The notes below the pieces were generated by a model. That model was given only the letters and a program-made list of their open reading frames with translations. It made no database searches and had not been told where the DNA came from. The position numbers and the translations under genes were made by a program. From Candidatus Nomurabacteria bacterium (GTDB taxonomy: Bacteria > Patescibacteriota > Minisyncoccia > Phycocordibacterales > SBAW01), in the NCBI GenBank assembly GCA_943348815.1, contig CALQYT010000002.1, positions 37,129 to 101,128 on the forward strand: DNA of 64,000 nucleotides. The letters are read 5' to 3'. Below are positions 12,732 through 51,863 of the stretch, in pieces (the first letter of the stretch is position 1; each line of letters opens with the position of its first letter).

Positions 12732-13337
12732 ATGAAAGTATTTTGGTTGTGGCTCTACGCAGCAGTGCCCATTACGGCCTTGTGTGTGGGTATTTACTGC
12801 GCCGGGCAGCAAATGTACCGGCAGTTGGCTAACGACCCGCAGATTCAACTTGCCGAAGACGGCGCGGCGCGTCTCAATGGCGGCGAGATGCCAGCGGCAT
12901 TAGTGGAGCGGGGGGTACCACCGATAGATATTGGCAGCAGCCTTTCGCCATGGATTGCGGTGTATGACTCAGCAGGCACGGTGCTTGAGGCTTCGGCAGT
13001 GTTCGATAACGCGCCACCCAAACTTCCTGCGGGCGTGTTTGATACCACCAACGCTTCGGCGCAGGTTGATGACCCTATTTGGATTAAGGGTGAATACAAA
13101 GTCACTTGGCAGCCGCGCGCGGATGTTCGGCAAGCCGTGGTAGTTGTGCAAACAAAAGATAAAAAATATTTTGTAGCGGCGGGTCGGAGTTTGCGGTTGA
13201 GCGAGGAGCGCACCCAGTTGCTTGGCGGAAGTATGATTTTTGGTTGGTTTGTCACGCTTGTTGGACTTTTGGTTGTATTATTAGGGTATGGCTACGTTAG
13301 CGGAAGAACTCAAAAAGATACTCAAGGGCGAGGTTGA
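12732..13337 (+). CDS. Hypothetical membrane-anchored protein
   Basis: N-terminal and C-terminal hydrophobic helices. 201 aa. Confidence 0.4.
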   Translation: MKVFWLWLYAAVPITALCVGIYCAGQQMYRQLANDPQIQLAEDGAARLNGGEMPAALVERGVPPIDIGSSLSPWIAVYDSAGTVLEASAVFDNAPPKLPAGVFDTTNASAQVDDPIWIKGEYKVTWQPRADVRQAVVVVQTKDKKYFVAAGRSLRLSEERTQLLGGSMIFGWFVTLVGLLVVLLGYGYVSGRTQKDTQGRG

Positions 13338-14982
13338 GGATAGTGTGGAGGCACGCGAGAAGGTAAGTCGGGATGCGAGCCTCTTTAAGGTGCTCCCCGA
13401 GGTGGTCGTGCGGCCTATTGACGCGCAAGATGTCTGCAAAGTAGTGCAGTTTGTCACCGAGCAAAAAACCAAAAGCCCAAAATCCACTATTTCGCTCACG
13501 GCACGCTCGGCGGGGACCGACATGTCGGGTGGGCCGCTTAACGACTCGATTATTTTGGATATGACGGCACACCTCAACAAGCTTGTTGAGATGGTGGAGT
13601 AAGACGCGGTGGTGGAACCGGGGATGTATTTTAGAGATTTTGATAAAGAAACGAAGAAAAAAAACTTAGAGTTGCCGAGCTACACCGCAAGCAGGGAGCT
13701 AAACACGGTGGGTGGGATGGCCGCCAACAACTCGGGTGGCGAAAAAAACTTAAAATACGGTAAGACTGCGCGCTACGTTGAGGGGCTTGAGGTGGTTTTG
13801 AGCGATGGGCAGGTACATACTTTGGTGTCACTTGAGGGCGAGGTGTTACAGAAAAAACTACAGGAGCAAAGTTTTGAGGGAGAGTTATACCGAAAAGTTG
13901 CCGCGCTGGTGGGGACTCCGGCACATGCCAAAGTGATCGAAAAAAATAAACCCCAAGTAGAAAAAAATTCTTCGGGCTATGCGGTATGGGATATTGGGGA
14001 TGGAAAAACTAAACTAAACCTCGCGCGGCTTATGGTGGGGGCGCAAGGCACACTCGGCATAATCACCAAAATACATTTTAAGTTGGTGCATCCCAAGCCC
14101 TACGCTTCGATGGCGGTGATTTTTGTTAAAAATCTTTCACAACTCGGCGAGCTGGTGCCTGAGGTGTTGAAGTATCAGCCCGACTCATTTGAGTCGTATG
14201 ACGACCACACCTTTAGTATTGCGATGAAGTACTTACCCGAGCTCGCAACGCAGATGAAGTCGGGGCTCTTGTCGCTCGGTATCTCATTTTTGCCGGAGTT
14301 ATGGATGGCCCTTACTGGTGGCATCCCTAAGCTCGTACTTATTGTCGAATTTAGGGGCGACACTCAGGCCGAGGCTCTGCAAAAGGCCCAAAAACTTGCG
14401 GGAGAGGTGGCTCATAATAAAGACCACGTGTCGGTCCGGGTGGCTAAAACCGAGGCACAGGCGCGCAAATATTGGGCCGTACGTCGTGAGAGCTTTAATT
14501 TGTTGCGCAAAAAGGTGCGGGGCAAGCGTACCGCGCCGTTTATCGACGATTTTGTGGTGCCGCCGCACACCCTGCCGGAGTTTTTGCCCAAATTGCAAAA
14601 AGTTATGGCAGAGTACCCCAGCCTCACCTACACGATTGCGGGCCATGTGGGGGACGGCAACTTTCACATTATCCCCTTGGTCGACCCCAACGATCCAACC
14701 ATCCGCACTACGATCGACGAGTTGAGCCACAAAGTGTATGACTTAGTGGTGCAATACCACGGCTCAATCAGTGGCGAGCATAACGATGGTCTTATCCGCA
14801 CGCCGTATGTCGAAAAGATGTTTGGCCCCGAAATGTACGGATTGTTTATGGAAGTAAAAAAGATCTTTGATCCGCAAAATATCTTTAATCCGGGTAAAAA
14901 AGTCGGTACGACTTTTAGCGATGCGCTCGCAAAGTTGGATTTACCGCCGCAACCTTCAGTCAAAACTCAGCAAGGCAAATGA
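13288..14982 (+). pseudogene. FAD-linked oxidase (GlcD/D-lactate dehydrogenase family) interrupted by an in-frame TAA at 13600-13602
   Basis: The two ORFs 13288-13602 and 13609-14982 are in the same frame. Read across the stop the sequence is '...LNKLVEMVE*DAVVEPGMYF...'. This is the conserved V-x-V-E-P-G-V stretch of the FAD-binding PCMH domain. The C-terminal part carries 'GGMAANNSGGEKNLKYG'. Confidence 0.6.
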
Positions 14983-25700: not shown

Positions 25701-26357
25701 TCATTTGAGCGAGGTCGAACCTCGCTCACTTCCGTAACCTATCCATCCTTGTATTTCTTTTTTGAACTCTTTGGGCGTAGGAAAATAATTCGGCAACACA
25801 GTTTTGTTTAATATTTTTCCTTGGGGACGCAATATGCCAGCAAGATCTGAGTAGCTTGAATATGGATAGTCGTCTAAAGTAACCCTTTCCTTTGGATTAA
25901 TTGGATTAAGGTGTATGTAAGCAATTAAATATTTTAAATATCGATCTTCTCCTGCATGTACAGATTTAAATTTTCCTTGAAACAATGCGCCAGTACGTTC
26001 GTTTTTGGTATTGAAATACATGGTGTATGCTGTTACAAGTTTTTGCATAAATCGACTGATACCGTTATCAACTTGTTGATGTAGTAAAAGATGGAAATGG
26101 TTAGGCATAAGACAGTAGCTAACAATAGCGACCAAAGGCTCGTTTCGGTCAACTTCGAGCGCACGAGTGAGTAAGGTCGAGCCTCGTTCAGAGCGGCGGA
26201 TATTTTCTATCTTTATAGATTCGGAACTGTTGGCTAAATACAAGAGGGAAAGAAAACGTTCGTAATCAGTTTTTGTAAGAAAAATTTTGCGTTTTTCGGT
26301 GCCGCGATTATAGATGTGGTAAAACTCGCCCTTACTTAGAGGAGGTCTATTTCCCAT
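25701..26357 (-). CDS. Y1 HUH transposase, IS200/IS605 TnpA / REP-associated tyrosine transposase (RAYT)-like
   Basis: Contains 'GEFYHIYNRG', the HUH motif 'YCLMPNHFHLLL', and a catalytic Tyr region 'IAYIHLNPINP'. Confidence 0.75.
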   Translation of the reverse strand: MGNRPPLSKGEFYHIYNRGTEKRKIFLTKTDYERFLSLLYLANSSESIKIENIRRSERGSTLLTRALEVDRNEPLVAIVSYCLMPNHFHLLLHQQVDNGISRFMQKLVTAYTMYFNTKNERTGALFQGKFKSVHAGEDRYLKYLIAYIHLNPINPKERVTLDDYPYSSYSDLAGILRPQGKILNKTVLPNYFPTPKEFKKEIQGWIGYGSERGSTSLK

Positions 26358-26439: not shown

Positions 26440-28443
26440 ATGGGGAAGTTTAAACTTAAAACACCACACCGGCCGGCGGGGGATCAGCCCAAGGCTATTG
26501 AGGCTTTGGTTAAGGGGCTCGAGCGCGGCGAGCGGCACCAAACGCTGCTGGGCGTCACCGGCTCGGGCAAGACCTTCACCGTGGCCAATGTTATAGAAGC
26601 GGTACAAAAGCCGACCCTCGTTATTGCGCACAACAAAACGCTCGCGGCACAGTTGGCGCAGGAATACCGCGAGTTTTTCCCCGATGCAGCCGTGCATTAT
26701 TTTGTTTCCTACTACGATTACTACCAACCCGAGGCCTACATCGCGCACTCGGATACGTATATAGAGAAGGAGGCGCAGATTAACGAAGAGATCGAGCGCC
26801 TGCGCCATGCCTCTACCCAAGCCCTGCTCACGCGTAACGATGTCATCGTGGTCGCGTCGGTGTCCTGCATTTATGGTTTAGGGAGCCCGGATGAATATCG
26901 CAAAGTGCATTTGGAATTAAAGGCGGGTGTGGCAAAAAATCGTTCAGAATTAATTCGCGAACTCATTGGCGTGTACTTTGAGCGCACCAATGCCGACCTT
27001 ACGCCGGGCACCTTTCGTGCAATCGGCAACAGTGTGGAGATTATGCCGACCGGCGAGCGGGTTTTGTATCGTGTCGAGTTTTTGGGGGAGAAGATAGAAA
27101 AGTTGCGCGTTATTGATGCTATTACGCGCGAGGAAAAATCTGCGCCAGACTCGATATTTTTGTTCCCCGCCAAACATTATGTAACCCCCGAAGATGAGCG
27201 CGACCGCGCTATTGCCGACATTCGTGCCGAGCTTAAGGAGCAGCTGGCAAAGCTTGAGCGTAAAGGCAAATTGCTAGAGGCCGAACGTCTGAAGCGCCGC
27301 ACCAACTACGACTTGGCGATGATACGCGAGCTTGGCTACTGCAACGGGATCGAAAATTACTCGCGCCACTTTGACGGTCGCAAACCGGGCGAACCGCCCT
27401 ACACCTTGTTGAGTTATTTCCCCGAAGGATTTTTGACGGTGATAGACGAAAGTCATGTAACCGTGCCGCAGATTGGCGGTATGTATAATGGCGATCGCGC
27501 ACGCAAAGAAACGTTGATCGACTTTGGATTCCGTTTGCCGAGCGCCGTCGACAACCGCCCCCTGCAGTTTGAAGAGTTTGAAGAGCGGGTGGGACAGGTG
27601 ATTTATACTTCGGCGACACCCAGCACCTACGAAAAAGAAAAATCGGGCAAAAATATTGTCGAGCAGATTGTGCGCCCCACCGGACTTTTAGATCCGATTA
27701 TAGACATCCGTCCGGTTATTGCGCAAAAAAATTATCCGGGCCAGGTGCAAGATGCGATAGAAGAAATTACAAAAGTTGTTAAAAATGGCAACCGCGTGTT
27801 GGTCACGACACTCACTAAAAAAATGGCCGAAGATTTGAATGACTATTTGAAAGAACGCAAGATCAAATCAACCTACTTGCATAGCGATGTTGAAACGCTT
27901 GAGCGTATCGAGATACTCACGAGCTTGCGTCGCGGCGAGTACGATGTGTTGGTGGGGGTTAACTTGTTGCGCGAGGGGCTCGACTTGCCCGAGGTTGAGT
28001 TGGTGGCGATTTTAGATGCCGACAAATCCGGATTTTTGCGCAGCGAAGTCTCGCTGATACAAACGATTGGCCGCGCCGCGCGCAACTCGGCCGGCCGCGT
28101 GGTGTTGTATGCCGATGAAGAAACGCCCGCGCTCAAAGTAGCGGTGAGCGAAACACGCCGCCGCCGCGCTGCACAAGAGTTGTATAACAAAGAGCACGGC
28201 ATCACGCCCACGACGATCAAGAAAAATATCAAAGATATTACCGAGGAGTTGCGTAGCGAACATAGCAAGGCGGTGGTGGGGATGTTGGAGGTAGACAAAC
28301 AACTGTACAAAGAAAATCCAAAGAAATTTATTACCGCGAAGCGCCGCGAGATGGCCGATGCGGTCAAAGAGCTTGACTTCGAAACCGCAGCGCTAATCCG
28401 CGATGAGCTGTATGCTTTAACAGGCGGGAAGAAAAAGAAATGA
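26440..28443 (+). CDS. uvrB: Excinuclease ABC subunit B
   Basis: 667 aa. Walker A 'GVTGSGKTFT'. Helicase motifs and the C-terminal UVR domain are present. Confidence 0.95.
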   Translation: MGKFKLKTPHRPAGDQPKAIEALVKGLERGERHQTLLGVTGSGKTFTVANVIEAVQKPTLVIAHNKTLAAQLAQEYREFFPDAAVHYFVSYYDYYQPEAYIAHSDTYIEKEAQINEEIERLRHASTQALLTRNDVIVVASVSCIYGLGSPDEYRKVHLELKAGVAKNRSELIRELIGVYFERTNADLTPGTFRAIGNSVEIMPTGERVLYRVEFLGEKIEKLRVIDAITREEKSAPDSIFLFPAKHYVTPEDERDRAIADIRAELKEQLAKLERKGKLLEAERLKRRTNYDLAMIRELGYCNGIENYSRHFDGRKPGEPPYTLLSYFPEGFLTVIDESHVTVPQIGGMYNGDRARKETLIDFGFRLPSAVDNRPLQFEEFEERVGQVIYTSATPSTYEKEKSGKNIVEQIVRPTGLLDPIIDIRPVIAQKNYPGQVQDAIEEITKVVKNGNRVLVTTLTKKMAEDLNDYLKERKIKSTYLHSDVETLERIEILTSLRRGEYDVLVGVNLLREGLDLPEVELVAILDADKSGFLRSEVSLIQTIGRAARNSAGRVVLYADEETPALKVAVSETRRRRAAQELYNKEHGITPTTIKKNIKDITEELRSEHSKAVVGMLEVDKQLYKENPKKFITAKRREMADAVKELDFETAALIRDELYALTGGKKKK

Positions 28444-28450
28444 AAAACAA

Positions 28451-28476
28451 AAAGACTACGATATATCGTAGTCTTT
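28451..28476. terminator. Bidirectional hairpin terminator
   Basis: AAAGACTACGATAT/ATCGTAGTCTTT is a perfect palindrome flanked by A- and T-runs. Confidence 0.6.
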
Positions 28477-28496
28477 TTGTTTGTTGAACGGAATAC

Positions 28497-28691
28497 TTAT
28501 CTCCAGTGGCGGTAGCCGGAGTAGGCCAAGAAGAGCGCCACTATCGCGACAACCCAAGACACCTCAACCGGCACCACCCAGCCCATAAGGTTTACCGGGA
28601 GCGAGTAAAATGCGCGATACAAATGCACGAGACCAACAATAGTAAAGATGACCGTTGCCACCTGCACAAAAGTACTTTTATCCATATGCAC
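28497..28691 (-). CDS. Small membrane protein (64 aa)
   Basis: Two hydrophobic helices. A terminator hairpin (ACAGACGG...CCGTCTGT, 28755-28775) follows the next gene. Confidence 0.3.
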   Translation of the reverse strand: MHMDKSTFVQVATVIFTIVGLVHLYRAFYSLPVNLMGWVVPVEVSWVVAIVALFLAYSGYRHWR

Positions 28692-28774
28692 TATAGTGTA
28701 CCGCTCATAATTTTTTTGAAGTGCGTGGTTGTGTATAAGTCAAAAACAAAAAAAACAGACGGAGTCACCGTCTG

Positions 28775-29248
28775 TTAAGGGTATACAAGCTCAAACTGGC
28801 CAGTCACACAATCAAGAAGCCAGGCTTGAGAGTACTCAAGCGCACCATGCCTAATATTTTGTCCCAGCACGGCAGAGGCATATTGCCCGGGCAACCCCGA
28901 CCAGTCGCCGGTCAGCTCAAGATGGCCAACAACAATCACCGTGTCGGCCTCTTCGGCGAGGTCCATGGTAGGACCGAGGTATGGTGTATTTATTGCTCTG
29001 CTGAGCAAAGGGTCTTCCTCTGCTTGAGTGCCAAACTCCTCGGCGATAATCTTTGCGCTCAACCGACCTCTTGCCATATCGGAGCATTTTACTCGCACCA
29101 GAAGATTTTGCGGAATACGGGCACGGAGTTTCTTTGCAACCGAGCGAGTTTCCGCCTCTCCTTTTTCGGTGATCCCCTCCGGTGCGGGGGAGATCGTTGG
29201 TTCAGCGTGGCGAGTGACCACGATAAACCGGGCTCTTCGTTTTATCAT
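28775..29248 (-). CDS. Histidine phosphatase family protein (SixA-like)
   Basis: 'FIVVTRHAEP' is the RHG-type catalytic motif. A start at MIKRR is preferred. Confidence 0.6.
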   Translation of the reverse strand: MIKRRARFIVVTRHAEPTISPAPEGITEKGEAETRSVAKKLRARIPQNLLVRVKCSDMARGRLSAKIIAEEFGTQAEEDPLLSRAINTPYLGPTMDLAEEADTVIVVGHLELTGDWSGLPGQYASAVLGQNIRHGALEYSQAWLLDCVTGQFELVYP

Positions 29249-29419
29249 GCACGATCTCCCTTTTTGTGCTTTGAAAGAAAAATAACATTGCCTCAATGAT
29301 TGTCAATTTTTTAACACGATATGCTATACTCGTCCGTACCAACCCCCTGGAATAGCCGCGGGGGCTGTTTGCGTGGAAGGAAAAGTTGTGTACCCGTTCG
29401 GCAAGCTCAGGGTAAATCT

Positions 29420-32008
29420 ATGGAAGAGCATATTCATATCAAGGGGGCAAAGACCCACAACCTAAAAAACATCGACCTTAAAATCCCCAGAAATAAAATG
29501 GTGGTTTTTACGGGTTTGTCTGGCTCGGGCAAATCATCGCTCGCGTTTGATACTATTTTTGCCGAAGGGCAGCGCCGCTATATCGAAAGTTTGTCAGCCT
29601 ACGCGCGACAATTTTTGCGCCAGATGCAAAAACCCGATGTCGAGGAGATCACCGGACTTTCGCCCGCAATTTCTATCGATCAAAAATCGCGCAGCAATAA
29701 CCCACGCTCAACCGTGGCGACGATTACCGAAATTTATGACTACCTGCGCATTTTGTACGCGCGCGTGGGCAAGCCGCATTGTTTAATTTGCGGCCGCGAA
29801 ATACGCAAGCACTCGAACGAAGAAATAATCCAAAGTGTAGTTGAGACCGTTTCTTCTCATGTTCCTAAAAAAATCAAAAAAGTGATGGGGGTCGAGATCA
29901 GCGACGATGTGGTGCGGGTGTATGCGCCCGTGGTTGTCGGTCGCAAGGGCGAGTACTATCAATTACTTTACGATTTGTTGGGCAAGGGTTTTGAGCGTGC
30001 CAAAGTAGACGGCAAGCTTATTTCTTTGCGCGAGCGGGTTGAACTTTCGCGCCACAAAAAACACAGTATTGATGTGTTGGTAGATGAGCTTTTGATTTCT
30101 GAATTCCAGCGCGAAAAAAAGCCGGCAATCGAGCGTTTGTCCGAAGCCGTTGAACGTGCGCTGCAAGAGGCGGACGGCTTGGTCAAAATAGAGGAGGCAG
30201 GACAAGAGCGGATTATCTCGAGCAAATTCATGTGCGCCTATGACGGATTTTCTTTCCCCGAAGTTGAACCTCGTCTGTTTTCGTTTAACTCGCCGTATGG
30301 CGCATGCCCCCACTGTAACGGCTTGGGTACTAAACACTTTTGGTCCGATGAGCCGTGTCCGGAGTGTAAAGGCAAACGTCTGCGCCCCGAAGCGCTGCAT
30401 GTGTTTGTAAGCACGAAATCCGAAGCACGAAATCCGAAAAATATTGTAGACGTTACGAGTCAATCGATTAAAGAGGCGTATGATTTTTTTGAAGGACTTG
30501 AGCTTTCTAAAAAAGATCAAGAAATTTCTAAAACGGTCGTCAAAGAAATCTGTGCGCGGCTTAAATTTATGCTCGATGTGGGTCTCGACTACCTGACGCT
30601 CGATCGCAAGGCCAACACGCTCTCCGGCGGCGAGGCGCAGCGCATACGGCTGGCATCGCAGTTGGGGAGTGGGCTGGTGGGCGCTCTCTACGTGCTCGAC
30701 GAGCCGACGATCGGCTTGCACCAGCGTGACAACGAGCGGCTGATTAAAACACTGCTCAACCTGCGCGACTTAGGTAACACGATTATTGTGGTCGAACACG
30801 ACGAGGATACTATCTATTCTTCGGACTACATTGTCGACATTGGCCCGGGCGCCGGCGTGCACGGGGGCGAAATTGTAGTGGACGGTTGGCTCGAAAAATT
30901 ATTGACCGCTAAAAAGAATGACAGCGGCTCGGTCACGTTGTCCTACTTGCGCGGTGAAAAGGCAATAGAGGTGCCCGAGGAACGCCGCGAAAAAGATAAA
31001 GGCAGCCTCAAAATTAAAGGTGGCAACGCGCACAATATAAAAAACTTGGATGTCGAAGTGCCGCTCGGCCGACTATCGGTAATCACGGGTGTTTCCGGCT
31101 CGGGTAAATCGACCTTTTTGTACGACCTGGTGTATGAAAATTTGCGCGCGCGATTCGACAAAAGCCATCGCACCAACAAAGTGCACAACGCGGCTAAGTT
31201 TGAGGGTACCGAGCATCTGTCACGGGCAATACTTATCGACCAAAGTCCTATAGGCCGTACACCACGCTCTAACCCGGCAACCTACACGGGCGCGTTTTCG
31301 TTTGTGCGCGAGTTGTTTGCAGAGAGTTCGGAAGCTCGCGCTCGCGGATGGAAGGCGTCGCGCTTTTCGTTTAACGTCCCGCAGGCGCGCGGTGGCGGGC
31401 GTTGTGAGGCCTGCGAGGGCAACGGCATGATTGCCGTCGAAATGCACTTTTTGCCAACCGTCTACGTTACCTGCGATGTTTGCAATGGCAAACGGTTTAT
31501 GAAGGAGACGCTCGAGATTAAGTACAACAAAAAGAGCATTCACGACATACTCGAGATGACGATAGAGGAGGCCATCAAATTCTTTGGCGATATCCCGGCG
31601 ATCTATGATCGGCTCAAAACCTTGGAAGAGGTTGGTTTGGGGTATTTAAAACTGGGTCAATCGGCAACAACGCTCTCGGGTGGCGAGGCACAGCGCGTCA
31701 AAATCTCTGCGGAGTTGTATCGTCCTCACTTGCAAAAAACTATCTACTTGCTCGATGAGCCCACCGTTGGGTTGCACTACGAAGATGTCCGCAAACTCAT
31801 CGATATTCTCAATCGCCTGGTGGCAGCGGGGAATACGGTGCTCTTGATTGAGCACAATATGGACATCATCAAATCATCTGACTATGTGTTGGACTTTGGA
31901 CCCGAAGGCGGTGTGGGGGGCGGCAAATTGGTCGCCAAAGGCACCCCTGAGGATGTGGCTAACAATAAGAACTCCCACACAGGCAAATACTTGCGCAAAG
32001 TGTTATAA
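29420..32008 (+). CDS. uvrA: Excinuclease ABC subunit A
   Basis: Two ABC modules with '[14 protein letters not shown]' and '[10 protein letters not shown]', zinc-finger cysteines, and the motif 'LDEPT(I/V)GLH'. The start is set at the '[10 protein letters not shown]' Met. Confidence 0.95.
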
Positions 32009-32017
32009 AAAGAGCGC

Positions 32018-33271
32018 ATGACGCTCGAGCAATTTAAGAAGAAGGCCAAGCAAATACCCGACTCGCCGGGAGTGTATTTCTTTCTTGGCCCGCCGAAGCC
32101 TCGGCGAAGGGGGCTTGGGCATACTAGAGAGATTCTCTACATTGGCAAGGCCACCAGTTTGCGCGACCGCGTGCGTAGCTACTTTGCTAACGATTTGGCC
32201 GAGACACGCGGGGCGCTGATTGTGCAAATGCTGGAGAAGGCAGTGTCTATTGATTTTAGAAAGACCGATTCGGTACTCGAAGCACTGTTGCTTGAATCGT
32301 CGCTGATACACTCGCACAAACCACCGCACAACACCGACTCCAAAGATGATAAGAGTTGGAATCATGTACTTATAACTGATGAAAATTTTCCCCAAGTGTT
32401 GGTAGTGCGGACGACCAATCTTGGGGAGTACAAGGCCAAAAAAATATTCGGTCCCTTCCCACATGGGCTCCAACTACGCGAGGCGATGAAATTAATCCGC
32501 CGAATATTTCCGTATCGCGATGAAAAATGCAAGCCAGGTCAAAAGAGGCCGTGCTTTAATCGCCAAATTGGTTTATGTCCCGGGGTCTGCACCGGCGAAA
32601 TTTCTGCAAAAGAATACCGCAAGACCGTGCGACACATTGTGTTGTTGTTTGAGGGCAAGAAAAAGCAACTCCTTAAGAGCTTGGCCAAAGAGATGCGCGC
32701 CGCCGCAAAAGAAGAAAATTTTGAACAAGCAAAAGAGCTTCACCGGCAACTATACGCACTGCAACATATCCAGGACATTTCGCTGATAAAATCCGAATAT
32801 CGAAATCCGAAATTTGATGGTTTAGCATATCGGATTGAGGCGTACGATATCGCACATCTGCAGGGTTCGGCTCATGTCGGAGTAATGACCGTAGTCGAGG
32901 GCGGGGAGGCGGCCAAAAGTCAGTATCGTAAGTTTAAAATCAAAACCGCCAAGCAGGGTGACGATCCGGGCGCCTTGCGCGAGGTGTTGAGTCGCCGCCT
33001 GGGGCACGACGAGTGGCCACTACCACGATTGATAGTGGTAGACGGCTCGACCGCGCAGATTAATGCCGCCCAAACGGTGCTTGCTGAGTACGGTATGAGT
33101 ATCCCGGTGGTCGGTGTAGTGAAGGACGAAAAGCATCGACCGCGCAATATTTTAGGTGGTCGCGAACTTATTAAAACTAAAGAACGCGAGATTTTGCTTG
33201 CCAATGCCGAAGCCCATCGGTTTGCTATTGGGTATCATCGCAACAAAAGTCGTAAGAATCTCGTTATATAA
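32018..33271 (+). CDS. uvrC: Excinuclease ABC subunit C, compact form (417 aa)
   Basis: The N-terminal GIY-YIG domain carries 'GVYFFLG...ILYIGKATSLRDRVRSYF'. A UVR motif follows. The C-terminal endonuclease domain carries 'YDIAHLQGSAHVGVM...VVDGSTAQ'. There is no C-terminal (HhH)2 region. Confidence 0.85.
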   Translation: MTLEQFKKKAKQIPDSPGVYFFLGPPKPRRRGLGHTREILYIGKATSLRDRVRSYFANDLAETRGALIVQMLEKAVSIDFRKTDSVLEALLLESSLIHSHKPPHNTDSKDDKSWNHVLITDENFPQVLVVRTTNLGEYKAKKIFGPFPHGLQLREAMKLIRRIFPYRDEKCKPGQKRPCFNRQIGLCPGVCTGEISAKEYRKTVRHIVLLFEGKKKQLLKSLAKEMRAAAKEENFEQAKELHRQLYALQHIQDISLIKSEYRNPKFDGLAYRIEAYDIAHLQGSAHVGVMTVVEGGEAAKSQYRKFKIKTAKQGDDPGALREVLSRRLGHDEWPLPRLIVVDGSTAQINAAQTVLAEYGMSIPVVGVVKDEKHRPRNILGGRELIKTKEREILLANAEAHRFAIGYHRNKSRKNLVI

Positions 33272-36148: not shown

Positions 36149-36829
36149 ATGAAAAAAATTCTGTTTGTTTGTTCGGCACTGTTTTTGTGCGCGCCTTTTT
36201 TGGCGAGTGCGCATCAGCATGGGACGTTTACCTTCGGCGGTTCAACCTACAGCTTTGTGGTGGGCTCGCTCAACGAGCCGGTCGCCGTTGATGACAAAAC
36301 CGGTGTCGACCTCACGGTTACCAAAGGTGCGGGGACGCCGACGATGTCAGCTGACGGTGACATGGATGGTATGCCAAAAAGTTCGACCCCGGTAACCGGT
36401 TTGGAGAAGACGCTGCAGGTTGAGCTTTCTGCCGGAGGAAAGACCAAAGTTCTCGCGCTCTCTCCCGCCTATGGCAAACCGGGTTCTTACACCGCGCCGT
36501 TTTATCCGACCGTTGCGACCTCTCTTTCGTACCGTTTTTTCGGCACGATTGATGGTACGAAAGTAAATATTACTTTTGTTTGCCGGCCAGAAGGTGCAAC
36601 CGCAATCGACGAAGGACAAAAAGATCTCGGCGGTGGCGTGATGCAAGTGTCCAAAATGGGTGGGTTTGGCTGCCCGATGGATAAAGCGTCGATGGGCTTC
36701 CCTGAACAGTCAGCGTCGGTCATCTCATTGAGTAGCGACAGCAATAGCGCGCGCACCTACTCATACGCAGGCATCGTGCTTGGCGCGGTCGCGTTGGTGT
36801 TTGGGTTGATGTGCCGCCGCAGCAACTAA
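36149..36829 (+). CDS. YcnI-like (DUF1775-type) exported copper-binding protein with a C-terminal TM anchor
   Basis: Signal peptide cleavage at 'ASA|HQHG' would expose an N-terminal His. Mono-topic C-terminal anchor 'YAGIVLGAVALVFGLMCRR'. Sits directly upstream of the CopC-CopD gene, as ycnI does with ycnJ. Confidence 0.4.
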   Translation: MKKILFVCSALFLCAPFLASAHQHGTFTFGGSTYSFVVGSLNEPVAVDDKTGVDLTVTKGAGTPTMSADGDMDGMPKSSTPVTGLEKTLQVELSAGGKTKVLALSPAYGKPGSYTAPFYPTVATSLSYRFFGTIDGTKVNITFVCRPEGATAIDEGQKDLGGGVMQVSKMGGFGCPMDKASMGFPEQSASVISLSSDSNSARTYSYAGIVLGAVALVFGLMCRRSN

Positions 36830-36834
36830 GCACG

Positions 36835-39582
36835 ATGCGGAAGATTGCAGCCATAGTGCTCGTGCTTGCCTGCGCGCCGCTCTTAGCGAGCGCGCACGCC
36901 ACACCCGTCTCATACGAGCCGGCGTCTTCTGCCGTGCTCACAAACCCTCCTAAAGAGGTTTCGATCCACTTTAGCGAAAGGGCAGATGCGGCAGCCAGTT
37001 CGTTGCAAGTACTTGCGCCGGATGGCGAGGTGGTGTCGCAGGGGAGTCCGCGCGTCGCACAGGGCGACGCGCGAGTGCTCTCTGTGTCTATCGTTGCAAC
37101 GACGAGCGGTACCTACGTGGTTAATTGGAGCGTCGTGTCGGCAGATGACGGGCACTTTACCAAAGGAGGTTACTTGTTTGCCGTTGGACAAGCGGTTGAT
37201 GCCTCTAAACAAACGTCCTCGTTTGAGTTAGTGACCACCAACAACATTCCCGAAGCACTCGGCATGACGGTCGAGTTAATGGGGCATGGGTTACTGTGGG
37301 CAATCCTATTATTTTTTGTATTCGCATTACGGCCGGTCTTAGGGCGTTTTATTGCTGAAAAACCCCTGTTGCGTCGATTGCATGCACGAGTGCTTTTTGG
37401 CGCCATCGCACTCGTCATACTGGGCGGACTGTTGCAGCTTTACACCAAGTCGTCTGATCTTTCGAGCTTGCATAGTGTTGGATTGCTCTCCGCCTTTTGG
37501 CTGTATCTCGGCACTTCGGCTGGGTTAGCCACACTCGTTCGTATGGGAGCCGCCACAATTATTGCGATCGTTTTTGCTTTTGCAAGAAAAAAGATTTTTG
37601 ATTCTGCGCATTTTACGCTGTGGGAGGGAATAATTTTTGGACTACTCTGTATTTTTGCTTTCGCGCGGGCAGTTATTAGCCACGCTACCGCAAACCCTTT
37701 TCATCCGTATTTTTCTATCCTCGTTAACTTTTTCCACGTAATAGAGAAGGACGTGTGGGCCGGTCTGCTATTTATTCTGCTCTTGCTACTGCTTATGCCG
37801 CGCCTGCGCGGGGTCTTTAGTGCGGTCGTGCAACGGGTGTTTGTGATGCTTTTGTGGGATGCAGCGGCTGTTGCGGTAACGGCAAGCTACATCGTATGGC
37901 TGCATCTAAAAAGTTTTAACAATCTCTTTTCGACCGAATGGGGGACCGCGTTTTTATACTTGCTTTGCGCCGCAGTGGTGTTGGTGCTGGTGCGGACTTG
38001 GAGCACGTGGGCACTTTGGCGCGGCCATGCCAAACAGCTCCCACTGGCGCTTGGTACAGAATTTATTTTTGCGGTGTTCGTAATCTACTTCTCGAGCATC
38101 GTTATTATTACCTCACCGCCGCTGTTAACGCCGCCAACTAAAGTTTTTAGCACCACGAGCCAAGGGATGACGATTAATCTTGGGCGCGACACTTCAGATG
38201 ATTCCGCGCTTTTGTTGCGCGCGGGCGGTGCGCCAACGGTTAGGATCGACTCACTCTCGGTCGACGCACACGCCCGTTATCCGGGTGCCTACGACATTCC
38301 TTTGGCCTTGCTTACCGGGACTACTACACACACAGTTTCGATCACCGTGCCACAGCAGAGGAGCTATGATGCGCACGCTGAGTTTGAAGTTACAAAAAGT
38401 GATTTTGTGCCACCGGCAGGATGGGAGTCGCAGCGACCGTTCGACTTTTTTACCATCGCGATAATCGTACTGGCTTTGTTGGCACTCTTATACTCCTTTG
38501 GTCTTTTGTGGATTTTGCGGCACACAAACGCACCTCCTATGTTGGTGGGCGCTACGACGCTTCAGGTCGCTGGCGCTGTGGTAGCGGCAAGTGTGGTTGG
38601 TATAGGATTTTTTGCCATCGTCATGAGTCTGGGCCTGGCAAATCCCTTTAAGGCGCTCTGCGAGAGCGACGGTAACAGGTGGCACACGATGCCGCCCAGC
38701 ATAGCGGGTGTCGCGACCAGTATGACCCCGCGCGAGGGCTGCATGTGGGGGATGGGTAGTTACACTTATCTTTTTGCCGATCAACAAGAATATAAATATT
38801 ATGAATCATTGCCACACGCAGAAGTTTCGCTCGCGGCGTCGCCAAAAATATTGGTTGCCGGAGTGCCCACCACGCTTACCGTATCGCTCACAAATGCAGA
38901 CGGGACTCCGGCGACGCTGTTTGTCGATATGGAAAAGTTGGTGCACTTGGTAATTGTCAGCAAAGACGAAACTACGTTTGCGCATATTCATGCCGCGCAA
39001 ACTGGCGACGAAATTGCGGCGTCGACTTATCACTTTACATACACCTTCCCCAAAGCGGGGGAATACTTAGTGTCAGCCGACTATGCACATGGACTGACAT
39101 TCGAATCAAAACAATTTGTAGTTATGGTCAGAGGTGCTCCGACACAAACAGTACAAGCAAAAGAGTATCCATCGCCCGGCGCTTTTGGCGGTTACCAAGT
39201 TGCGCTTAAATACGCGCTGCCGCTTGCCGGCAAAGTAGCAACGCTGCAATACACGATTACTAAAGATGACAAACCAATTACTACGATTGAGCCGTATCTT
39301 TCGGCTGCAGCGCATGTATCGATAGTAAAAAATGATTTCTCAACTTTTATTCATACGCACGGTGAGTTGCATCCGCCCGGCGTGCCGCTGCCGCCTATCG
39401 TCGTTAAAAACGGCCAAGTAGTGCACACGATGGCACAAATGATGAATGTGCCCGAGCATTTTGGCCCGCTGGTGGAAACGCATCTTATTTTCGGAACGGC
39501 GGGGCTGTATACGGTTTGGGCAGAGTTTAAAGTAAACGGTACGGTAATTCCTACCGCATTTACGGTGCGGGTGGAAGAGTAG
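36835..39582 (+). CDS. CopC-CopD fusion copper transport/resistance protein (YcnJ-like) with an extra TM segment and a duplicated C-terminal extracytoplasmic domain
   Basis: The N-terminus after 'ASA|HATPVSYEPAS...' has a CopC fold with 'WSVVSADDGHFTKGGYLFAV'. A polytopic CopD-like core follows. The C-terminal ~330 aa has two similar halves carrying 'FAHIHAAQTGDE' and 'FIHTHGELHPPG'. Confidence 0.7.
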   Translation: MRKIAAIVLVLACAPLLASAHATPVSYEPASSAVLTNPPKEVSIHFSERADAAASSLQVLAPDGEVVSQGSPRVAQGDARVLSVSIVATTSGTYVVNWSVVSADDGHFTKGGYLFAVGQAVDASKQTSSFELVTTNNIPEALGMTVELMGHGLLWAILLFFVFALRPVLGRFIAEKPLLRRLHARVLFGAIALVILGGLLQLYTKSSDLSSLHSVGLLSAFWLYLGTSAGLATLVRMGAATIIAIVFAFARKKIFDSAHFTLWEGIIFGLLCIFAFARAVISHATANPFHPYFSILVNFFHVIEKDVWAGLLFILLLLLLMPRLRGVFSAVVQRVFVMLLWDAAAVAVTASYIVWLHLKSFNNLFSTEWGTAFLYLLCAAVVLVLVRTWSTWALWRGHAKQLPLALGTEFIFAVFVIYFSSIVIITSPPLLTPPTKVFSTTSQGMTINLGRDTSDDSALLLRAGGAPTVRIDSLSVDAHARYPGAYDIPLALLTGTTTHTVSITVPQQRSYDAHAEFEVTKSDFVPPAGWESQRPFDFFTIAIIVLALLALLYSFGLLWILRHTNAPPMLVGATTLQVAGAVVAASVVGIGFFAIVMSLGLANPFKALCESDGNRWHTMPPSIAGVATSMTPREGCMWGMGSYTYLFADQQEYKYYESLPHAEVSLAASPKILVAGVPTTLTVSLTNADGTPATLFVDMEKLVHLVIVSKDETTFAHIHAAQTGDEIAASTYHFTYTFPKAGEYLVSADYAHGLTFESKQFVVMVRGAPTQTVQAKEYPSPGAFGGYQVALKYALPLAGKVATLQYTITKDDKPITTIEPYLSAAAHVSIVKNDFSTFIHTHGELHPPGVPLPPIVVKNGQVVHTMAQMMNVPEHFGPLVETHLIFGTAGLYTVWAEFKVNGTVIPTAFTVRVEE

Positions 39583-39695: not shown

Positions 39696-39769
39696 GCACC
39701 CTTAGCTCAGTTGGTTAGAGCGCACCCTTCACACGGGTGAGGTCGGGAGTTCGAGCCTCTCAGGGTGCA
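39696..39769 (+). tRNA. tRNA-Val (anticodon CAC), no encoded CCA
   Basis: Acceptor GCACCCT/AGGGTGC, D-arm TAGCTCAGTTGGTTAGAGC, anticodon loop TTCACAC, T-loop TTCGAGC. Confidence 0.85.
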
Positions 39770-39794
39770 CTGCTTCGCCAAGGCTTCGCAGTGC
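39770..39794 (+). repeat. 25-nt tRNA-trailer repeat, copy 1 (CTGCTTCGCCAAGGCTTCGCAGTGC)
   Basis: Begins immediately after the tRNA-Val discriminator. Together with the tRNA 3' end it forms GCACTGC...GCAGTGC. Confidence 0.6.
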
Positions 39795-39812
39795 GAGCAC
39801 AGGCAAGCGATT

Positions 39813-39883
39813 CGGGCTGTAGTATACCGGTAGTACGCGCGCTTCGGGTGCGTGAAGACTGGGTTCGATTCCCAGCAGCCCGA
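39813..39883 (+). tRNA. tRNA-Pro (anticodon CGG), no encoded CCA
   Basis: C1:G72 acceptor CGGGCTG/CAGCCCG, anticodon loop TTCGGGT, T-loop TTCGATT. Confidence 0.8.
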
Positions 39884-39909
39884 CAAAGTGATATAGTTTT
39901 TTGGCTTAA

Positions 39910-39980
39910 GGGCCCATAGTAAAGTGGTATTACGCGTCATTCGCATTGACGAGGCTCGAGTCCGATTCTCGATGGGTCCA
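39910..39980 (+). tRNA. tRNA-Ala (anticodon CGC), no encoded CCA
   Basis: Acceptor GGGCCCA/TGGGTCC with G3:U70. Anticodon loop TTCGCAT. Confidence 0.8.
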
Positions 39981-40005
39981 CTGCTTCGCCAAGGCTTCGC
40001 AGTGC
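39981..40005 (+). repeat. 25-nt tRNA-trailer repeat, copy 2
   Basis: Identical to copy 1. Begins right after the tRNA-Ala(CGC) discriminator. Confidence 0.6.
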
Positions 40006-40616: not shown

Positions 40617-41162
40617 ATGGGGGGTTCAGAAACGATAAGCATTGCGGTGGCGCTGTTGGCGCTGTTTTTGGTGTTGAGTACGGCGCTCAAGTATGCCGTG
40701 CGCGATAACTTTCATCGCACGAGGCTTATCATGACGCTGTTTTTCTTTTTCATTATCATCACGCTCACGATGGCGTTTTGGCGCTACACGCTCGCCTCGT
40801 TGCCCTCTACCATCCCTGCGGCGCTTGCAGGCGTGGCGCTTGGCTATGTGGCGGGAGTGCGCGAGGCGCAACGCAAATTAATGGAGCAAGGAGTTGAGTT
40901 TTATCGCGAGCACTTCCATCACGTGCACTTTATGGATATCCAAAACCTCAGTTGGTGGAGCGTTATTAACTTTTACTCCGTGATGGGCGCATTAGTGTTG
41001 ATTAACCTGGTAGGATTGAGCACCGTATTTTTTGTTGGGCGCGAGTCGTGGGCTATTGCGAGCTGTGTGGTGGGCGCCCTCCTTTTAGGATCCTTGGTGC
41101 CGTATCTCGTGCACCTGTGGAGCCTGCCTGCCGGCAAGGCAGGTATTAAAGCAGCGGACTAG
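40617..41162 (+). CDS. Hypothetical polytopic membrane protein
   Basis: 181 aa with five predicted TM helices. Confidence 0.4.
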   Translation: MGGSETISIAVALLALFLVLSTALKYAVRDNFHRTRLIMTLFFFFIIITLTMAFWRYTLASLPSTIPAALAGVALGYVAGVREAQRKLMEQGVEFYREHFHHVHFMDIQNLSWWSVINFYSVMGALVLINLVGLSTVFFVGRESWAIASCVVGALLLGSLVPYLVHLWSLPAGKAGIKAAD

Positions 41163-41847
41163 CAATAAGCGCTGCACAAGCAAACAAAAGTACGATAAGC
41201 GAGCTGTGGAATATGCGGCGCGCGATCTGGCGTGTGTGGTTGCTTGGTGTTTGGTGGACAAATAACGGCACTCCGGCTGCTTGGTATTCTTCGTAGCGAT
41301 AATACGCAATTGCCATAAAGTGCGGTATCTGCCATAAAAATAGCGCCGCAAAAAGTATGAACGCATACCAATCGAGCAGGTTGGTTGCTGCAACATATCC
41401 GACGACCGGCGGCATGGCACCGGCGAGTGCTCCAACCCAAAGCGCGTGCGGGGTTTTTGGTTTAAGGGGGGTGTAAACGAAGACGTAAATCACAAATCCC
41501 AACAAACCAAATACCAAACTTAAAAGGTTAATCTTCCACAAAAGGACAATACCCAGAGTTAAAAATGCTGAAGCAAAGAGTATCGCGTGCCGTACACTGA
41601 TGCGCCCTGCAGCGATGGCGCGGTTGTTGGTGCGCGCCATTTTGGCATCCATGTAGCGATCGGAGACGTTATTGCAAACACAGGCGGCGGCGACTACGCA
41701 CGACAACCCGATCAACAGTTCCCAAAAAGGAATACTTGCGCTGAGCGTAGTCGAACCAAAAAAGAATCCCGCTACTGCCGCGAGCGCGTTGCCCGCCACC
41801 ATGCGGGGTTTGGCGAGTTCGAAATAATCACGGAGCGTCCTAGTCAA
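41146..41847 (-). CDS. cyoE: Protoheme IX farnesyltransferase (heme O synthase)
   Basis: UbiA-family topology and motifs ('NNVSDRYMDAKMARTNNR'). It is the last gene of the cyo operon. Confidence 0.85.
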   Translation of the reverse strand: MTRTLRDYFELAKPRMVAGNALAAVAGFFFGSTTLSASIPFWELLIGLSCVVAAACVCNNVSDRYMDAKMARTNNRAIAAGRISVRHAILFASAFLTLGIVLLWKINLLSLVFGLLGFVIYVFVYTPLKPKTPHALWVGALAGAMPPVVGYVAATNLLDWYAFILFAALFLWQIPHFMAIAYYRYEEYQAAGVPLFVHQTPSNHTRQIARRIFHSSLIVLLFACAALIASPLL

Positions 41848-42175
41848 GTTGGTGTTCGGGGGATGGCTCGCCTATAAACATTTCGGATTGATTGTGTTGG
41901 AGATTGCTCATGATCCATAGCGAGCCACCAACCACGAGCACGACTATCAAGATTGCAAAACCATAGACAAATTTGTTCCACCCATTGCCTTGAGGTAGGT
42001 GCAAGAAATACACGGTTTGTACCAACAGTTGAGCCACCGCAAACAGCGGTAATACAACATAGAGCAGCTCGTGAGGAATTGCCGTGTGATTCATATGCAC
42101 ATGCATCCCCACCAATCCAAAACTCAAAAGAGTAAATAAGAGCGAGAGGATCAGGCCGTCAAAATAGTGCTTCAT
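41840..42175 (-). CDS. cyoD: Cytochrome o quinol oxidase subunit IV
   Basis: Roughly 110-aa 3-TM protein directly after cyoC. The start is taken at 'MKHYFDGL', which overlaps the cyoC stop as ATGA. Confidence 0.55.
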   Translation of the reverse strand: MKHYFDGLILSLLFTLLSFGLVGMHVHMNHTAIPHELLYVVLPLFAVAQLLVQTVYFLHLPQGNGWNKFVYGFAILIVVLVVGGSLWIMSNLQHNQSEMFIGEPSPEHQLD

Positions 42176-42666
42176 ATAATTCCAAAGAGATACACAAAGG
42201 TGAAGATAAAGATCCAGATGATGTCGAGGAAGTGCCAAAAGAGCACGAGACGCTGCAGTTGATAAAACCGTTGGGTGACGAGCATCACCAGCATCCACAA
42301 ACATCCTGCGGCAACATGCAGGCCGTGCGTGCCGACGAGGGCAAAAAATGAGGAGAGGTAGGCCGAGTGAGAAGGTCCAAAACCCTCGAGCATTAAATTT
42401 TTAAATTCGTAGACTTCCAACCCAAGAAAGCCCAAGCCAAGCAGAAGGGTCAGTATTAGAAAAGTATTTTGTTTTTTAGTGACAAAAGCGAGCCCGACCG
42501 TAAAACTTGAGATAAGCAGGGCGAGGGTTTGGACAAAGACGAACGGTAACGAAAAAATATCTTCGCTGCCGCGCAACACCGCAAACGTAGCAAAGAGGCT
42601 CGCAAAGAGCACGCAATCGCTCATGATATAGAGCCAGAATCCCAGCGTTGTTTTGTCAGTCGGCAT
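42172..42666 (-). CDS. cyoC: Cytochrome o quinol oxidase subunit III
   Basis: Five TM helices, '[21 protein letters not shown]'. Heme-copper oxidase subunit III family. Confidence 0.8.
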
Positions 42667-44467
42667 ATTCTGGTTTAGGGAGAGTGATGAGGGACAACAA
42701 AATACCGATCAAAGCCAGCGCAGCGAGCCACCAAATGTGCCAGATGAGTCCAAAACCAAAGAGTGCGGCGACCGCGCCTATGGCGACGCCGCGTGCGCTG
42801 CGCTCATGCAATGGTTCGGCCGGTTCTTGCCACTCAGGGCCCTGCGAGCGCCACGGATTTTCGCCCACATGATGTTTATGTTTATTCCAAATGCTCACGA
42901 TTATTTGAATTATTTGGAATAGGACCGCGAGCGCTATTACGGCTGCACCAGCCGCTGCGATATCAAATAACCAATGTGCCCACGGTTGTGTGTACAAGCC
43001 ACTTGCAACGTCGATATGGTCGAGCCGGCGGGTGACGCCCATTAACCCAAGCGCGTAGAGCGGCATAAAGGCCATAAGGAAGCCCACGATCCATGCCCAA
43101 AACGCAGCTTTGCCCCAGCGCTCATTTAACATAATCCCCGTAAATTTGGGGAACCAGTAGGTAAACCCGGCAAAGAATCCAAACACCACGCCGCCGATAA
43201 TCATGTTGTGAAAGTGCGCGACCAAAAACAAACTGTTGTGAAGCTGAAAGTCGGCTGCGGGGATAGACATTAAGACGCCCGTCATTCCGCCAATGGTAAA
43301 CGTGGTGAGGAAGCCTATAAACCACAGCATCGGTGTGGCAAAAATAATCCGTCCGCGGAACATCGTGAAGAGCCAGTTAAATACTTTAACCCCGGTGGGG
43401 ATAGCGATAGCCATCGTCATGATGCCAAAAAAGGCGTTGACATCGGCACCGGCGCCCATGGTGAAGAAGTGGTGCACCCACACCATAAACGACAACACCA
43501 CAATGAGCATGGTGGCGACGACCATGGAGGTGTAGCCAAAAAGTTTTTTCTGCGAAAAGGTCGCGACCACTTCAGAAAATATGCCAAACGCGGGGAGTAC
43601 CAAAATATACACCTCTGGGTGGCCCCACGCCCAAATGAGGTTGACGTACATCATCGCGTTGCCGCCCAGATCGGTGGTAAAAAAGTGGAAGCCGAGCGTG
43701 CGGTCAAGTGCAAGCAGTGCCAACGTGACCGTGAGTATGGGGAAGGCAAAAATAACCAACAACATCGAGCCGAGGGTTGTCCACGTAAACATTGGCATTT
43801 GCATGAGCCGCAGGTGGCCACGCATGGTGGCAATGGTGGTAAGAAAGTTGATGCCCGAAAGTAAAGTACCAATACCCGCAATTTGGAGGGCCCAAATATA
43901 ATAGTCGACACCAACCCCCGGGGAGTAGGCAAGTTCGGAGAGCGGCGGGTAGGCAAGCCAGCCCGTTGCCGCAAATTGTCCGACGACGAGCGAAAGGTTT
44001 AAAAGCAACGCGCCGGTTGCGGTGAGCCAAAAGCTAATCGAGTTGAGGAGGGGGAAGGCGACGTCTTTGCTACCTAGTTGGAGCGGCAACACCAGGTTTA
44101 TGATGCCAAACATAAACGCCATTGCCGCAAAAAAGATCATAATGACACCGTGCGCGGTAAAGAGTTGGGCAAAATGGTCGGGTGAAATATAGCCTGGCGC
44201 GCCAACGGCAAGCGCTTGCTGCGATTTCATCATCAGTGCATCGACAAAGCCGCGGCCAAACATCACAAACGACAGCAGAATGTACATGATGCCAATGCGT
44301 TTTGGGTCAAGCGAGGTGAGCCACTGTTGCCAGAGCCATCGCCAACGACCTAAGTAGGTGATCGCGAGTACGGTGACGAGCACTGCGACAATAACGATGA
44401 TTTGCGCGCCCGTTTCGATAGGGCCGTGGATGAATGCTTGCGGAGTTAGGAGTCCAAAGAGCGACAT
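42656..44467 (-). CDS. cyoB: Cytochrome bo3-type quinol oxidase subunit I (heme-copper oxidase catalytic subunit)
   Basis: Contains '[23 protein letters not shown]' and '[16 protein letters not shown]'. The His ligands for heme and CuB are conserved. Confidence 0.9.
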
Positions 44468-44468
44468 G

Positions 44469-45230
44469 TTAGTGGCCGAATTGTTTCAGTATCGCATGGT
44501 AGAGGTCGATGCGATATGCATACGTGCGTTCTTGTTCGGTACTTGGTGCGCGTAGCGCGCTGTAAGTTGCCTGATCGAGCACGGGCGAGGTAGAGGCAGT
44601 TGCAGCTACCCACGCTTCAAAATCTTTTTGAGCGACCGCGTGCACCACAAAGTGCATACCGGCAAAACCCGCGCCGCTGTAGTTGGCCGAGTAGCCGGGA
44701 TAATCACCGGGTTTGTCGGCCATCAAGTTGAGCCTATTATCCATCCCGGTCATCGCATAAATTTGCCCGCCTAACTGTGGCACCCAAAACGAATTCATGG
44801 GCGCATCGGCGGTAATGTGGAACTCAACCGGTATGTTGGCCGGAATTTCTAGCGTGTTAAGGCTGGCAACCCCAAGAGAGGGGTATAAAAAGAGCCATTT
44901 CCACGGCAGTGCGACGACCTCGACTTGTAATGCGGGGACGGTCGAGGGGAGGGGTTTACGGGGATCGAGTGCATGCGTGCTGCCCCAGGTGAGTGCGCCG
45001 AGTACCAAAATAATTTCGAGCGGGATCGCCCACCAAATAAGCTCGTCCATCTTAGCGTGCTCCCAGTTAGGAGAGTAGCGAGCTTTGTGGTTACCAGCGC
45101 GATAGTAGTAGGCAAAGAAAAAAAGCAGCACAAACACCGGTACCACGACAATAAGCATAAGAAGCGTCGCTTGGATAATAAGCGACGCTTCTTGGCTCGC
45201 GATGATGCCGCTGCTCTGCAGCAAGTACAT
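44469..45230 (-). CDS. cyoA: Quinol oxidase subunit II (CyoA-type, CuA site absent)
   Basis: '[52 protein letters not shown]' aligns to E. coli CyoA. The CuA Cys/His ligands are missing. Confidence 0.85.
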
Positions 45231-46020: not shown

Positions 46021-46987
<967 letters not shown>

Positions 46988-46993
46988 ACGTTT

Positions 46994-47434
46994 GTGCAGG
47001 CAATTCTTACCACATTCGGGATAGATTGGCGGCTCTTGCTCGTCAACATCATTAACTTCGGGCTCTTGCTCGCGGCGTTGTGGTACTTTTTGTACGGTCC
47101 GGTTACCAAAATGTTAGAGGAGCGTCGGCAGCGAGTCGCACAAGGGGTTGCCGACGCTGAAGCGGCTGCGCAAAAACTTGCCGAGGTAGAAGTAAAGCGC
47201 CGCGAGGTGCTAGGTGCCGCCGGCAAAGAGGCCGACGAAATACTATTGGGTGCGCGCTCTGCGGGTTCTGCAAAAGAACGCGAGTTGGTCAAGAAGGGAG
47301 AGTCGTCTGCGGCAGCGGTATTACGCGAGGCAGAGGCTCAAGCCGCCGAACTAAAGACCCGCGCTATCGACGAAAGTCGCCAGGAGGTCGCCAAACTGAT
47401 TGTCTTGGGGATAGAAAAGGCTTTAAAACAATGA
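46994..47434 (+). CDS. atpF: F0F1 ATP synthase subunit b
   Basis: N-terminal TM helix plus a long charged helix. Confidence 0.8.
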   Translation: MQAILTTFGIDWRLLLVNIINFGLLLAALWYFLYGPVTKMLEERRQRVAQGVADAEAAAQKLAEVEVKRREVLGAAGKEADEILLGARSAGSAKERELVKKGESSAAAVLREAEAQAAELKTRAIDESRQEVAKLIVLGIEKALKQ

Positions 47435-47667
47435 TAGAAGCTGATTACGCAAAAGCGCTATATGCACTCGGGGATAAGGCATCTATGCCGGCTTTTCTTG
47501 TCACACTTAAGCGTCATCGGCACCAAAAGCTCTTATCAAAAATTTTTTCTGAATATCAAAAACTTATTTTGCAAGGACAACGATTGGCGATGCACAAAAA
47601 AGTAACTCCTGAACAAGAACAAACACGGGTGCTGTTGGAGTTGTATAGAAAACTAACCCATGTCTAA
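47431..47667 (+). CDS. atpH: F0F1 ATP synthase subunit delta, severely shortened (78 aa)
   Basis: In the delta position between atpF and atpA. 'DYAKALYAL' resembles the OSCP N-terminus. Confidence 0.45.
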   Translation: MIEADYAKALYALGDKASMPAFLVTLKRHRHQKLLSKIFSEYQKLILQGQRLAMHKKVTPEQEQTRVLLELYRKLTHV

Positions 47668-49216: not shown

Positions 49217-49219
49217 TCT

Positions 49220-50137: not shown

Positions 50138-50141
50138 CTAA

Positions 50142-51530
<1,389 letters not shown>

Positions 51531-51626
51531 CAAGTATCAAACAAATATAAAAGTATAAAAACTTAAATATTTAAAATTTGTTACTTATTTGTCACTTGAT
51601 ACCTGATACTTGATACTTACAAAATT
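51531..51626. repeat. AT-rich spacer with short direct repeats (AACAAGT x3, GATAC(C)T x3) arranged as an imperfect inverted repeat
   Basis: Seen between atpD and atpC: '...gtaacaagtaacaaataacaagtatcaaacaaat...atttgttacttatttgtcacttgatacctgatacttgatactt'. Confidence 0.4.
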
Positions 51627-51863
51627 ATGCATTTAGTAATCGCCAAAGTAGATGAAGTTTTATTTGAGGGCGAGGCACACTCGCTGACGGTCCCCGGCAC
51701 AGCTGGCGAGATGACCGTGCTCGGCGAGCATATGCCGCTTATTACGACGCTCAAAGCGGGCGAGTTGCGCGTGCATCTAACCGTGCATGATGAACCAAAA
51801 ATATTTCCGGTCGAAAAGGGTGTCCTCGAAGTCCGCCGCGACGGGGCTACGGTGATTTTGTAA
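51627..51863 (+). CDS. atpC: F0F1 ATP synthase subunit epsilon, beta-sandwich domain only (78 aa)
   Basis: 'MHLVIAKVDEVLFEGEAHSLTVPGTAGEMTVLGEHMPLIT'. The C-terminal helical hairpin is absent. Confidence 0.75.
   Translation: MHLVIAKVDEVLFEGEAHSLTVPGTAGEMTVLGEHMPLITTLKAGELRVHLTVHDEPKIFPVEKGVLEVRRDGATVIL

Follow-up and report, generated by a model that had tools for sequence, protein, structure and literature searches.

A lone in-frame stop in a conserved FAD-linked dehydrogenase gene belongs to three clustered, private G-to-T differences and is probably an artifact of one assembly record

The gene considered here, for an FAD-linked oxidase or dehydrogenase (FAD_binding_4 plus FAD-oxidase_C), occupies positions 13288–14982 on the forward strand of the window, by which we mean the whole 64,000-nucleotide stretch of DNA that was analyzed. 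It comprises 564 codons plus a stop and is broken at codon 105 in this record, leaving two open reading frames (ORFs) that share one frame: an N-terminal fragment of 104 aa at 13288–13602 (+), which runs from an ATG at 13288 to a TAA at 13600–13602, and a C-terminal fragment at 13609–14982 (+), which gives 457 aa when read from a GTG at 13609 and ends at a TGA at 14980–14982. The NCBI record lists them as separate proteins, the first as P0121 and the second, called from an ATG at 13624, as P0003 with 452 aa. The junction reads LVEMVE-(stop)-DAVVEPGMYF or, with more of its surroundings, ...LNKLVEMVE-(stop)-DAVVEPGMYFRDF....

The Pfam FAD_binding_4 profile is matched at positions 1–59 by the N-terminal piece and at positions 68–138 by the C-terminal piece, in which a complete FAD-oxidase_C domain follows; the C-terminal fragment holds the remainder of the FAD-binding domain together with the substrate/cap domain. 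The joined sequence scores 93 bits against FAD_binding_4 as one domain, compared with 29 and 53 bits for the separate pieces, and its PCMH-type FAD-binding domain (PF01565) is complete (positions 1–138 of 139; cut-off 26.4 bits). The C-terminal substrate/cap domain (PF02913) is also present (177 bits, profile positions 5–247 of 248) and aligns with the structures of LctD and D-lactate dehydrogenase. The earlier note had read the two same-frame ORFs as one interrupted FAD-linked oxidase, and both the reading frame and the joined Pfam match bear this out; judged by these matches, the ORFs are colinear pieces of a single FAD-linked (PCMH/VAO-type) oxidase, and their adjacency is not a matter of chance. 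The N-terminal fragment contains the segment ARSAGTDMSGG, which aligns with RGSGTGLVGA of LctD (PDB 7qh2_C) and which we take to be the FAD pyrophosphate-binding loop.

The product is predicted to be an FAD-linked 2-hydroxyacid-type dehydrogenase of the VAO/PCMH superfamily. Its closest relatives in the PDB are LctD, mitochondrial D-lactate dehydrogenase (8jdc), glycolate oxidase, and D-2-hydroxyglutarate dehydrogenase, and it has in common with YdiJ and with the GlcD/D-lactate dehydrogenase branch of the VAO/PCMH enzymes the two-domain FAD_binding_4 plus FAD-oxidase_C architecture. The best NCBIfam match is YdiJ (NF049975), at profile positions 25–551 of 1018; its score of 249.6 bits lies under the curated cut-off of 1350 for this D-2-hydroxyglutarate dehydrogenase, and the C-terminal half of the profile is unmatched. 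The window protein is thus related to the N-terminal half of YdiJ and lacks the entire C-terminal half. The match to glycolate oxidase GlcD (TIGR00387) is likewise weak, with 206.6 bits against an equivalog cut-off of 567.9. Since both scores fall far below their cut-offs and the C-terminal half of YdiJ is absent, we assign no substrate.

A search of a large protein collection returned thousands of relatives, of which the best 120 were used. Excluding the window's own 452-aa fragment, these are 72–84% identical to the window protein and nearly all are single proteins of 540–600 aa; the colinear orthologues span 547–598 aa at 72–84% identity. Where the best 120 carry names, they are labeled as Patescibacteria, Paceibacterota, Adlerbacteria, or Kaiserbacteria. 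Conservation of this YdiJ-N-terminal-like dehydrogenase is unusually strong: across the 120 sequences, which come from many differently named lineages, 246 alignment columns reach at least 95% conservation. The window gene, read across its stop, shows no decay: it deviates at 1 of these 246 columns, and the family median is 2.

An interruption at the junction was found in 0 of 119 homologues and, as far as each contig extends, in 0 of 46 loci from one-per-species representative genomes. The representative-genome scan did not include this species, and its best match was 84% identical. One orthologous locus, L001, carries an intact gene in the same neighborhood, made up of a DUF5670 protein, a protein of ~200 aa, the FAD oxidase, an MBL hydrolase, ABC transporter genes, and MgsA. 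The comparison with orthologues that the earlier note had proposed therefore has a uniform outcome, with a sense codon in all of them and none split. Immediately upstream in the window, a 201-aa ORF at 12732–13337 (+) runs, in another frame, into the FAD oxidase gene and covers its first 50 nt; no Pfam family is on record for it and it has no NCBIfam match, and it keeps the same position in L001.

The stop had been placed inside the conserved VEPGV motif, but it lies four codons upstream of VEPG, at a variable hairpin turn. Its column is the most variable of the region (D39/E23/T18/S16/G11 in the alignment of 120 sequences), and 5 of 120 homologues carry 4–6 extra residues in the loop at this site. 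In the nucleotide sequences, L001 has GAG where the window has the stop, and a second orthologous locus, L002, has GGA. An AlphaFold model of the closest orthologue (P0001; pTM 0.81, local pLDDT about 94) confidently places the codon in a predicted β-hairpin turn between strands 97–100 and 104–107 of that protein.

Other assemblies of the same population allow the site to be compared from one assembly to the next. An exact-sequence look-up finds the 104-aa P0121 and the 452-aa P0003 recorded from a single NCBI contig (129,784 bp) and nowhere else. Clustered with them is P0122, an intact protein of 564 aa from the ENA assembly ERZ27280317, which is the same protein uninterrupted (...LVEMGEEDAVVEPG...) and is encoded on contig k141_121202 (137,928 bp). 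The lengths of the NCBI and ENA contigs differ, so that these are different assemblies, possibly from different samples. We compared the window with k141_121202 base by base, using four overlapping stretches that cover it completely. The two are identical at all 64,000 positions but three, and at each of the three the ENA contig has G and the window has T on the forward strand: at 13584, changing CTG to CTT (synonymous); at 13595, changing GGG to GTG (Gly103Val); and at 13600, changing GAA to TAA (Glu105 to stop).

These three differences form a private cluster at 13584–13600 (+) when the four assemblies and one orthologue are aligned. If three differences were scattered uniformly over 64 kb, the probability of finding them all within 17 bp would be about 2e-7; the three moreover share one type of transversion and one strand. 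G is present at all three sites on k141_39080 of ERZ27280321 and in the Logan contig ERR5863124_76571 as well, and the codon at the stop is GAA (Glu105) in all three other assemblies of this population, rather than the CAA, AAA, or TAT that had been expected. The orthologues L001 and L002 also carry G at the three sites, which makes G the ancestral state and the Ts derived. The stop thus belongs to a private, strand-coordinated G-to-T cluster in one record, and the organism's gene is, on the comparison of these assemblies, intact and predicted to encode a 564-residue protein.

Several further observations concern the assemblies themselves. The only other polymorphism that we saw among them lies at window position 52826, which is A in the window and in ERZ27280317 and G in ERZ27280321 (k141_70837); real strain diversity in the population therefore appears very low. 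In Logan ERR5863124 and ERZ27280321, the two lower-coverage assemblies, contigs end or start inside the FAD oxidase gene, at window positions 13616, 13803, 14264, and 14416, one of them ending 16 nt past the stop position. Such breaks may be due simply to low coverage, or else the assembly graph may be difficult or variable at this point. Scans of JGI metagenomes matched neither the T haplotype nor any other combination of bases at the three sites; this collection does not contain the species, and the scans are hence uninformative on the allele. A literature search on the run and assembly accessions found no paper.

We consider it probable that the G-to-T cluster is a consensus or assembly artifact, a technical cause suggested by the assembly-to-assembly comparison. 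Illumina miscalls typically include the confusion of G with T. The assembler, or a bin re-assembly step, could have followed a path of low-quality or oxidatively damaged reads in which G was read as T, and such a path would yield the apparent synonymous change, the Gly-to-Val replacement, and the stop codon. G-to-T (C-to-A) changes are a described signature of 8-oxoG artifacts of library preparation (PMC3616734), and Illumina substitution errors depend on sequence context and accumulate toward read ends (PMC4787001); of the three sites, 13595 alone, with TGG before it, follows a motif of the "..GG" type linked to such errors (PMC4787001). Like the consensus errors that these two sources can leave in metagenome-assembled genomes, the cluster is of one type and on one strand, occurs in one assembly only, and is contradicted by others; its effect here is what looks like a nonsense codon, in a gene whose conservation is otherwise perfect. 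The 8-oxoG artifacts as described are, by contrast, isolated calls of low allele fraction in reads, whereas here three reached the consensus sequence. Assemblers normally pop low-coverage error paths, which speaks against an artifact; for a triple error to enter the consensus, coverage would have to be low at this spot, or one damaged molecule would have to be represented by duplicate reads. Error in the ENA version instead, with T miscalled as G after GG, is ruled out by the orthologues and the two further assemblies that carry G at the three sites. Gene conversion from a paralogous copy was also considered and rejected, as no second copy of the 27-mer occurs within the 64-kb window at up to 3 mismatches.

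It is possible, though in our judgment less likely, that the record is correct and describes a genuine rare or sample-specific null allele, in which one multi-nucleotide event converted three Gs to Ts at once in a sub-population dominant in the assembled sample; oxidative damage to three guanines on one strand, for example, or an error-prone polymerase patch could be the source of such an event. The three Ts are present in the deposited assembly, where the gene is called as two proteins, and the difference at 52826 between the window and ERZ27280321 attests to real strain variation in the population. The absence of other decay in the gene would fit a very recent event, and a set of one synonymous, one missense, and one nonsense change resembles unselected mutation. 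On the other hand, the T-T-T haplotype is missing from all three other assemblies that cover the site, and the absence of any further difference from the ENA contig in 64 kb rules out a diverged strain as its source; it would also be rare for one real event to yield three transversions of the same kind within 17 bp. The gene is moreover among the best conserved of its clade, with identities of 72–84% over many genera and no interruption in any of 46 representative genomes, and given this conservation a null allele at majority frequency would be unexpected.

In its form, the locus does resemble a young nonsense pseudogene, where likewise one in-frame stop interrupts a gene that is otherwise intact and colinear and keeps its synteny, here with L001 (DUF5670 protein, 201-aa protein, FAD oxidase, MBL hydrolase, and ABC transporter genes). 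It differs in that the stop is not fixed, being absent from the three other assemblies, and in that further lesions or relaxed constraint are not seen. Nor does it look like an established pseudogene: the lesion is private to one record, and the single deviation at the 246 conserved columns does not exceed the family median of 2. A real allele of this kind would be a null allele of the ordinary sort, very young, and would say nothing about the genetic code. The loop presumed to bind the FAD pyrophosphate lies on the 104-aa fragment, so the C-terminal piece, which lacks it, would be inactive alone, and loss of function would be expected. We regard it as possible, though less likely than an artifact, that T-T-T is real and that one strand-coordinated event with the signature of oxidative damage knocked out, or much less likely split, one of the most conserved enzymes of the clade.

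A functional interruption is, in comparison, very improbable. Here, the TAA would be read through or recoded, or translation would terminate at the TAA and re-initiate at the GTG at 13609, after which the two polypeptides would have to join up again at the severed hairpin. As a restart signal, the sole candidate is a GGAG 9 nt upstream of this GTG, part of a Shine–Dalgarno-like GGTGGAG read from the sequence at 13593–13599 (+) in the segment 13593–13611, and the cut does fall in a surface hairpin turn that tolerates insertions of 4–6 residues in 5 of 120 homologues. Yet GGAG and GTG occur in the intact allele too, as part of its ordinary codons, and neither is a dedicated feature. The stop is followed by G, and UAAG is an efficient terminator in bacteria. 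TAA is, as the earlier note had stated, a normal stop elsewhere in the window; it is in fact the commonest true stop there, ending 36 of 63 long ORFs. Six tRNAs were found in the 64-kb window; none has a stop-reading anticodon, and a suppressor tRNA with anticodon UUA is accordingly not among them. We also listed all single stops in the window flanked by at least 70 open codons on both sides and checked two other same-frame ORF pairs with coding on both sides; neither is an interrupted gene, one being RarA, where the upstream stretch is non-coding, and the other ATP synthase c/b, which are two adjacent genes. Reassignment or suppression of TAA is ruled out by the stop-codon usage, the tRNA scan, and the lack of other interrupted genes in the window.

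Against a functional interruption also stand the orthologues, of which none is split or stopped here (0 of 46 loci, 0 of 119 proteins), and the plain GAA in three other assemblies of the same strain. Every orthologue is a single ORF, which rules out the two halves as naturally separate genes. Programmed read-through or a conserved split gene should recur among relatives, and the interruption is conserved neither in orthologues nor in the three assemblies of the same population. Three alternatives had been offered for the stop; read-through as a property of the organism is excluded by the GAA in those assemblies and by the sense codon in every orthologue, and base-call error and private mutation remain. 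The possibility that a sense codon belongs at this position, which would have meant an assembly error, gains support from the independent assemblies and points either to an error in the record or to a rare private allele. That a real T-T-T haplotype splits the enzyme at its hairpin turn into two pieces translated by stop and restart is hardly credible. As far as sequence comparison can tell, the stop is best filed as neither recoding, nor read-through, nor a conserved split gene, and as not a real feature of the organism.

With an artifact in one record as the favored explanation, the practical consequence is for annotation, where the 104- and 452-aa fragment calls should be merged into one FAD-linked dehydrogenase of 564 aa. 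The case also calls for caution, as a lone in-frame stop in a metagenome-assembled genome can mimic a fresh pseudogene or recoding; comparing assemblies of the same population revealed the intact gene, with the stop as one of three clustered private G-to-T differences.

Elsewhere in the window, the regions at 41146–45230 (−) and 46021–51800 (+) hold a heme-copper oxidase set (COX2, COX1, COX3, and COX4_pro) and a UbiA-family prenyltransferase, adjoining a complete F1Fo ATP synthase operon; the Pfam assignments here come from precomputed matches on the ENA contig, which is 100% identical. This respiratory set occurs although the orthologues of the genome are labeled Patescibacteria, Paceibacterota, or Adlerbacteria, a reduced-genome radiation in which genes for aerobic respiration are unusual. 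The FAD-linked 2-hydroxyacid dehydrogenase could feed the heme-copper oxidase chain. Four other regions, at 25701–26357 (−), 26440–33271 (+), 36811–39582 (+), and 39696–39981 (+), hold in turn an IS200-like Y1 transposase; a UvrB, UvrA, UvrC series; a protein of ~920 aa with a CopC domain; and a tRNA Val-Pro-Ala cluster.
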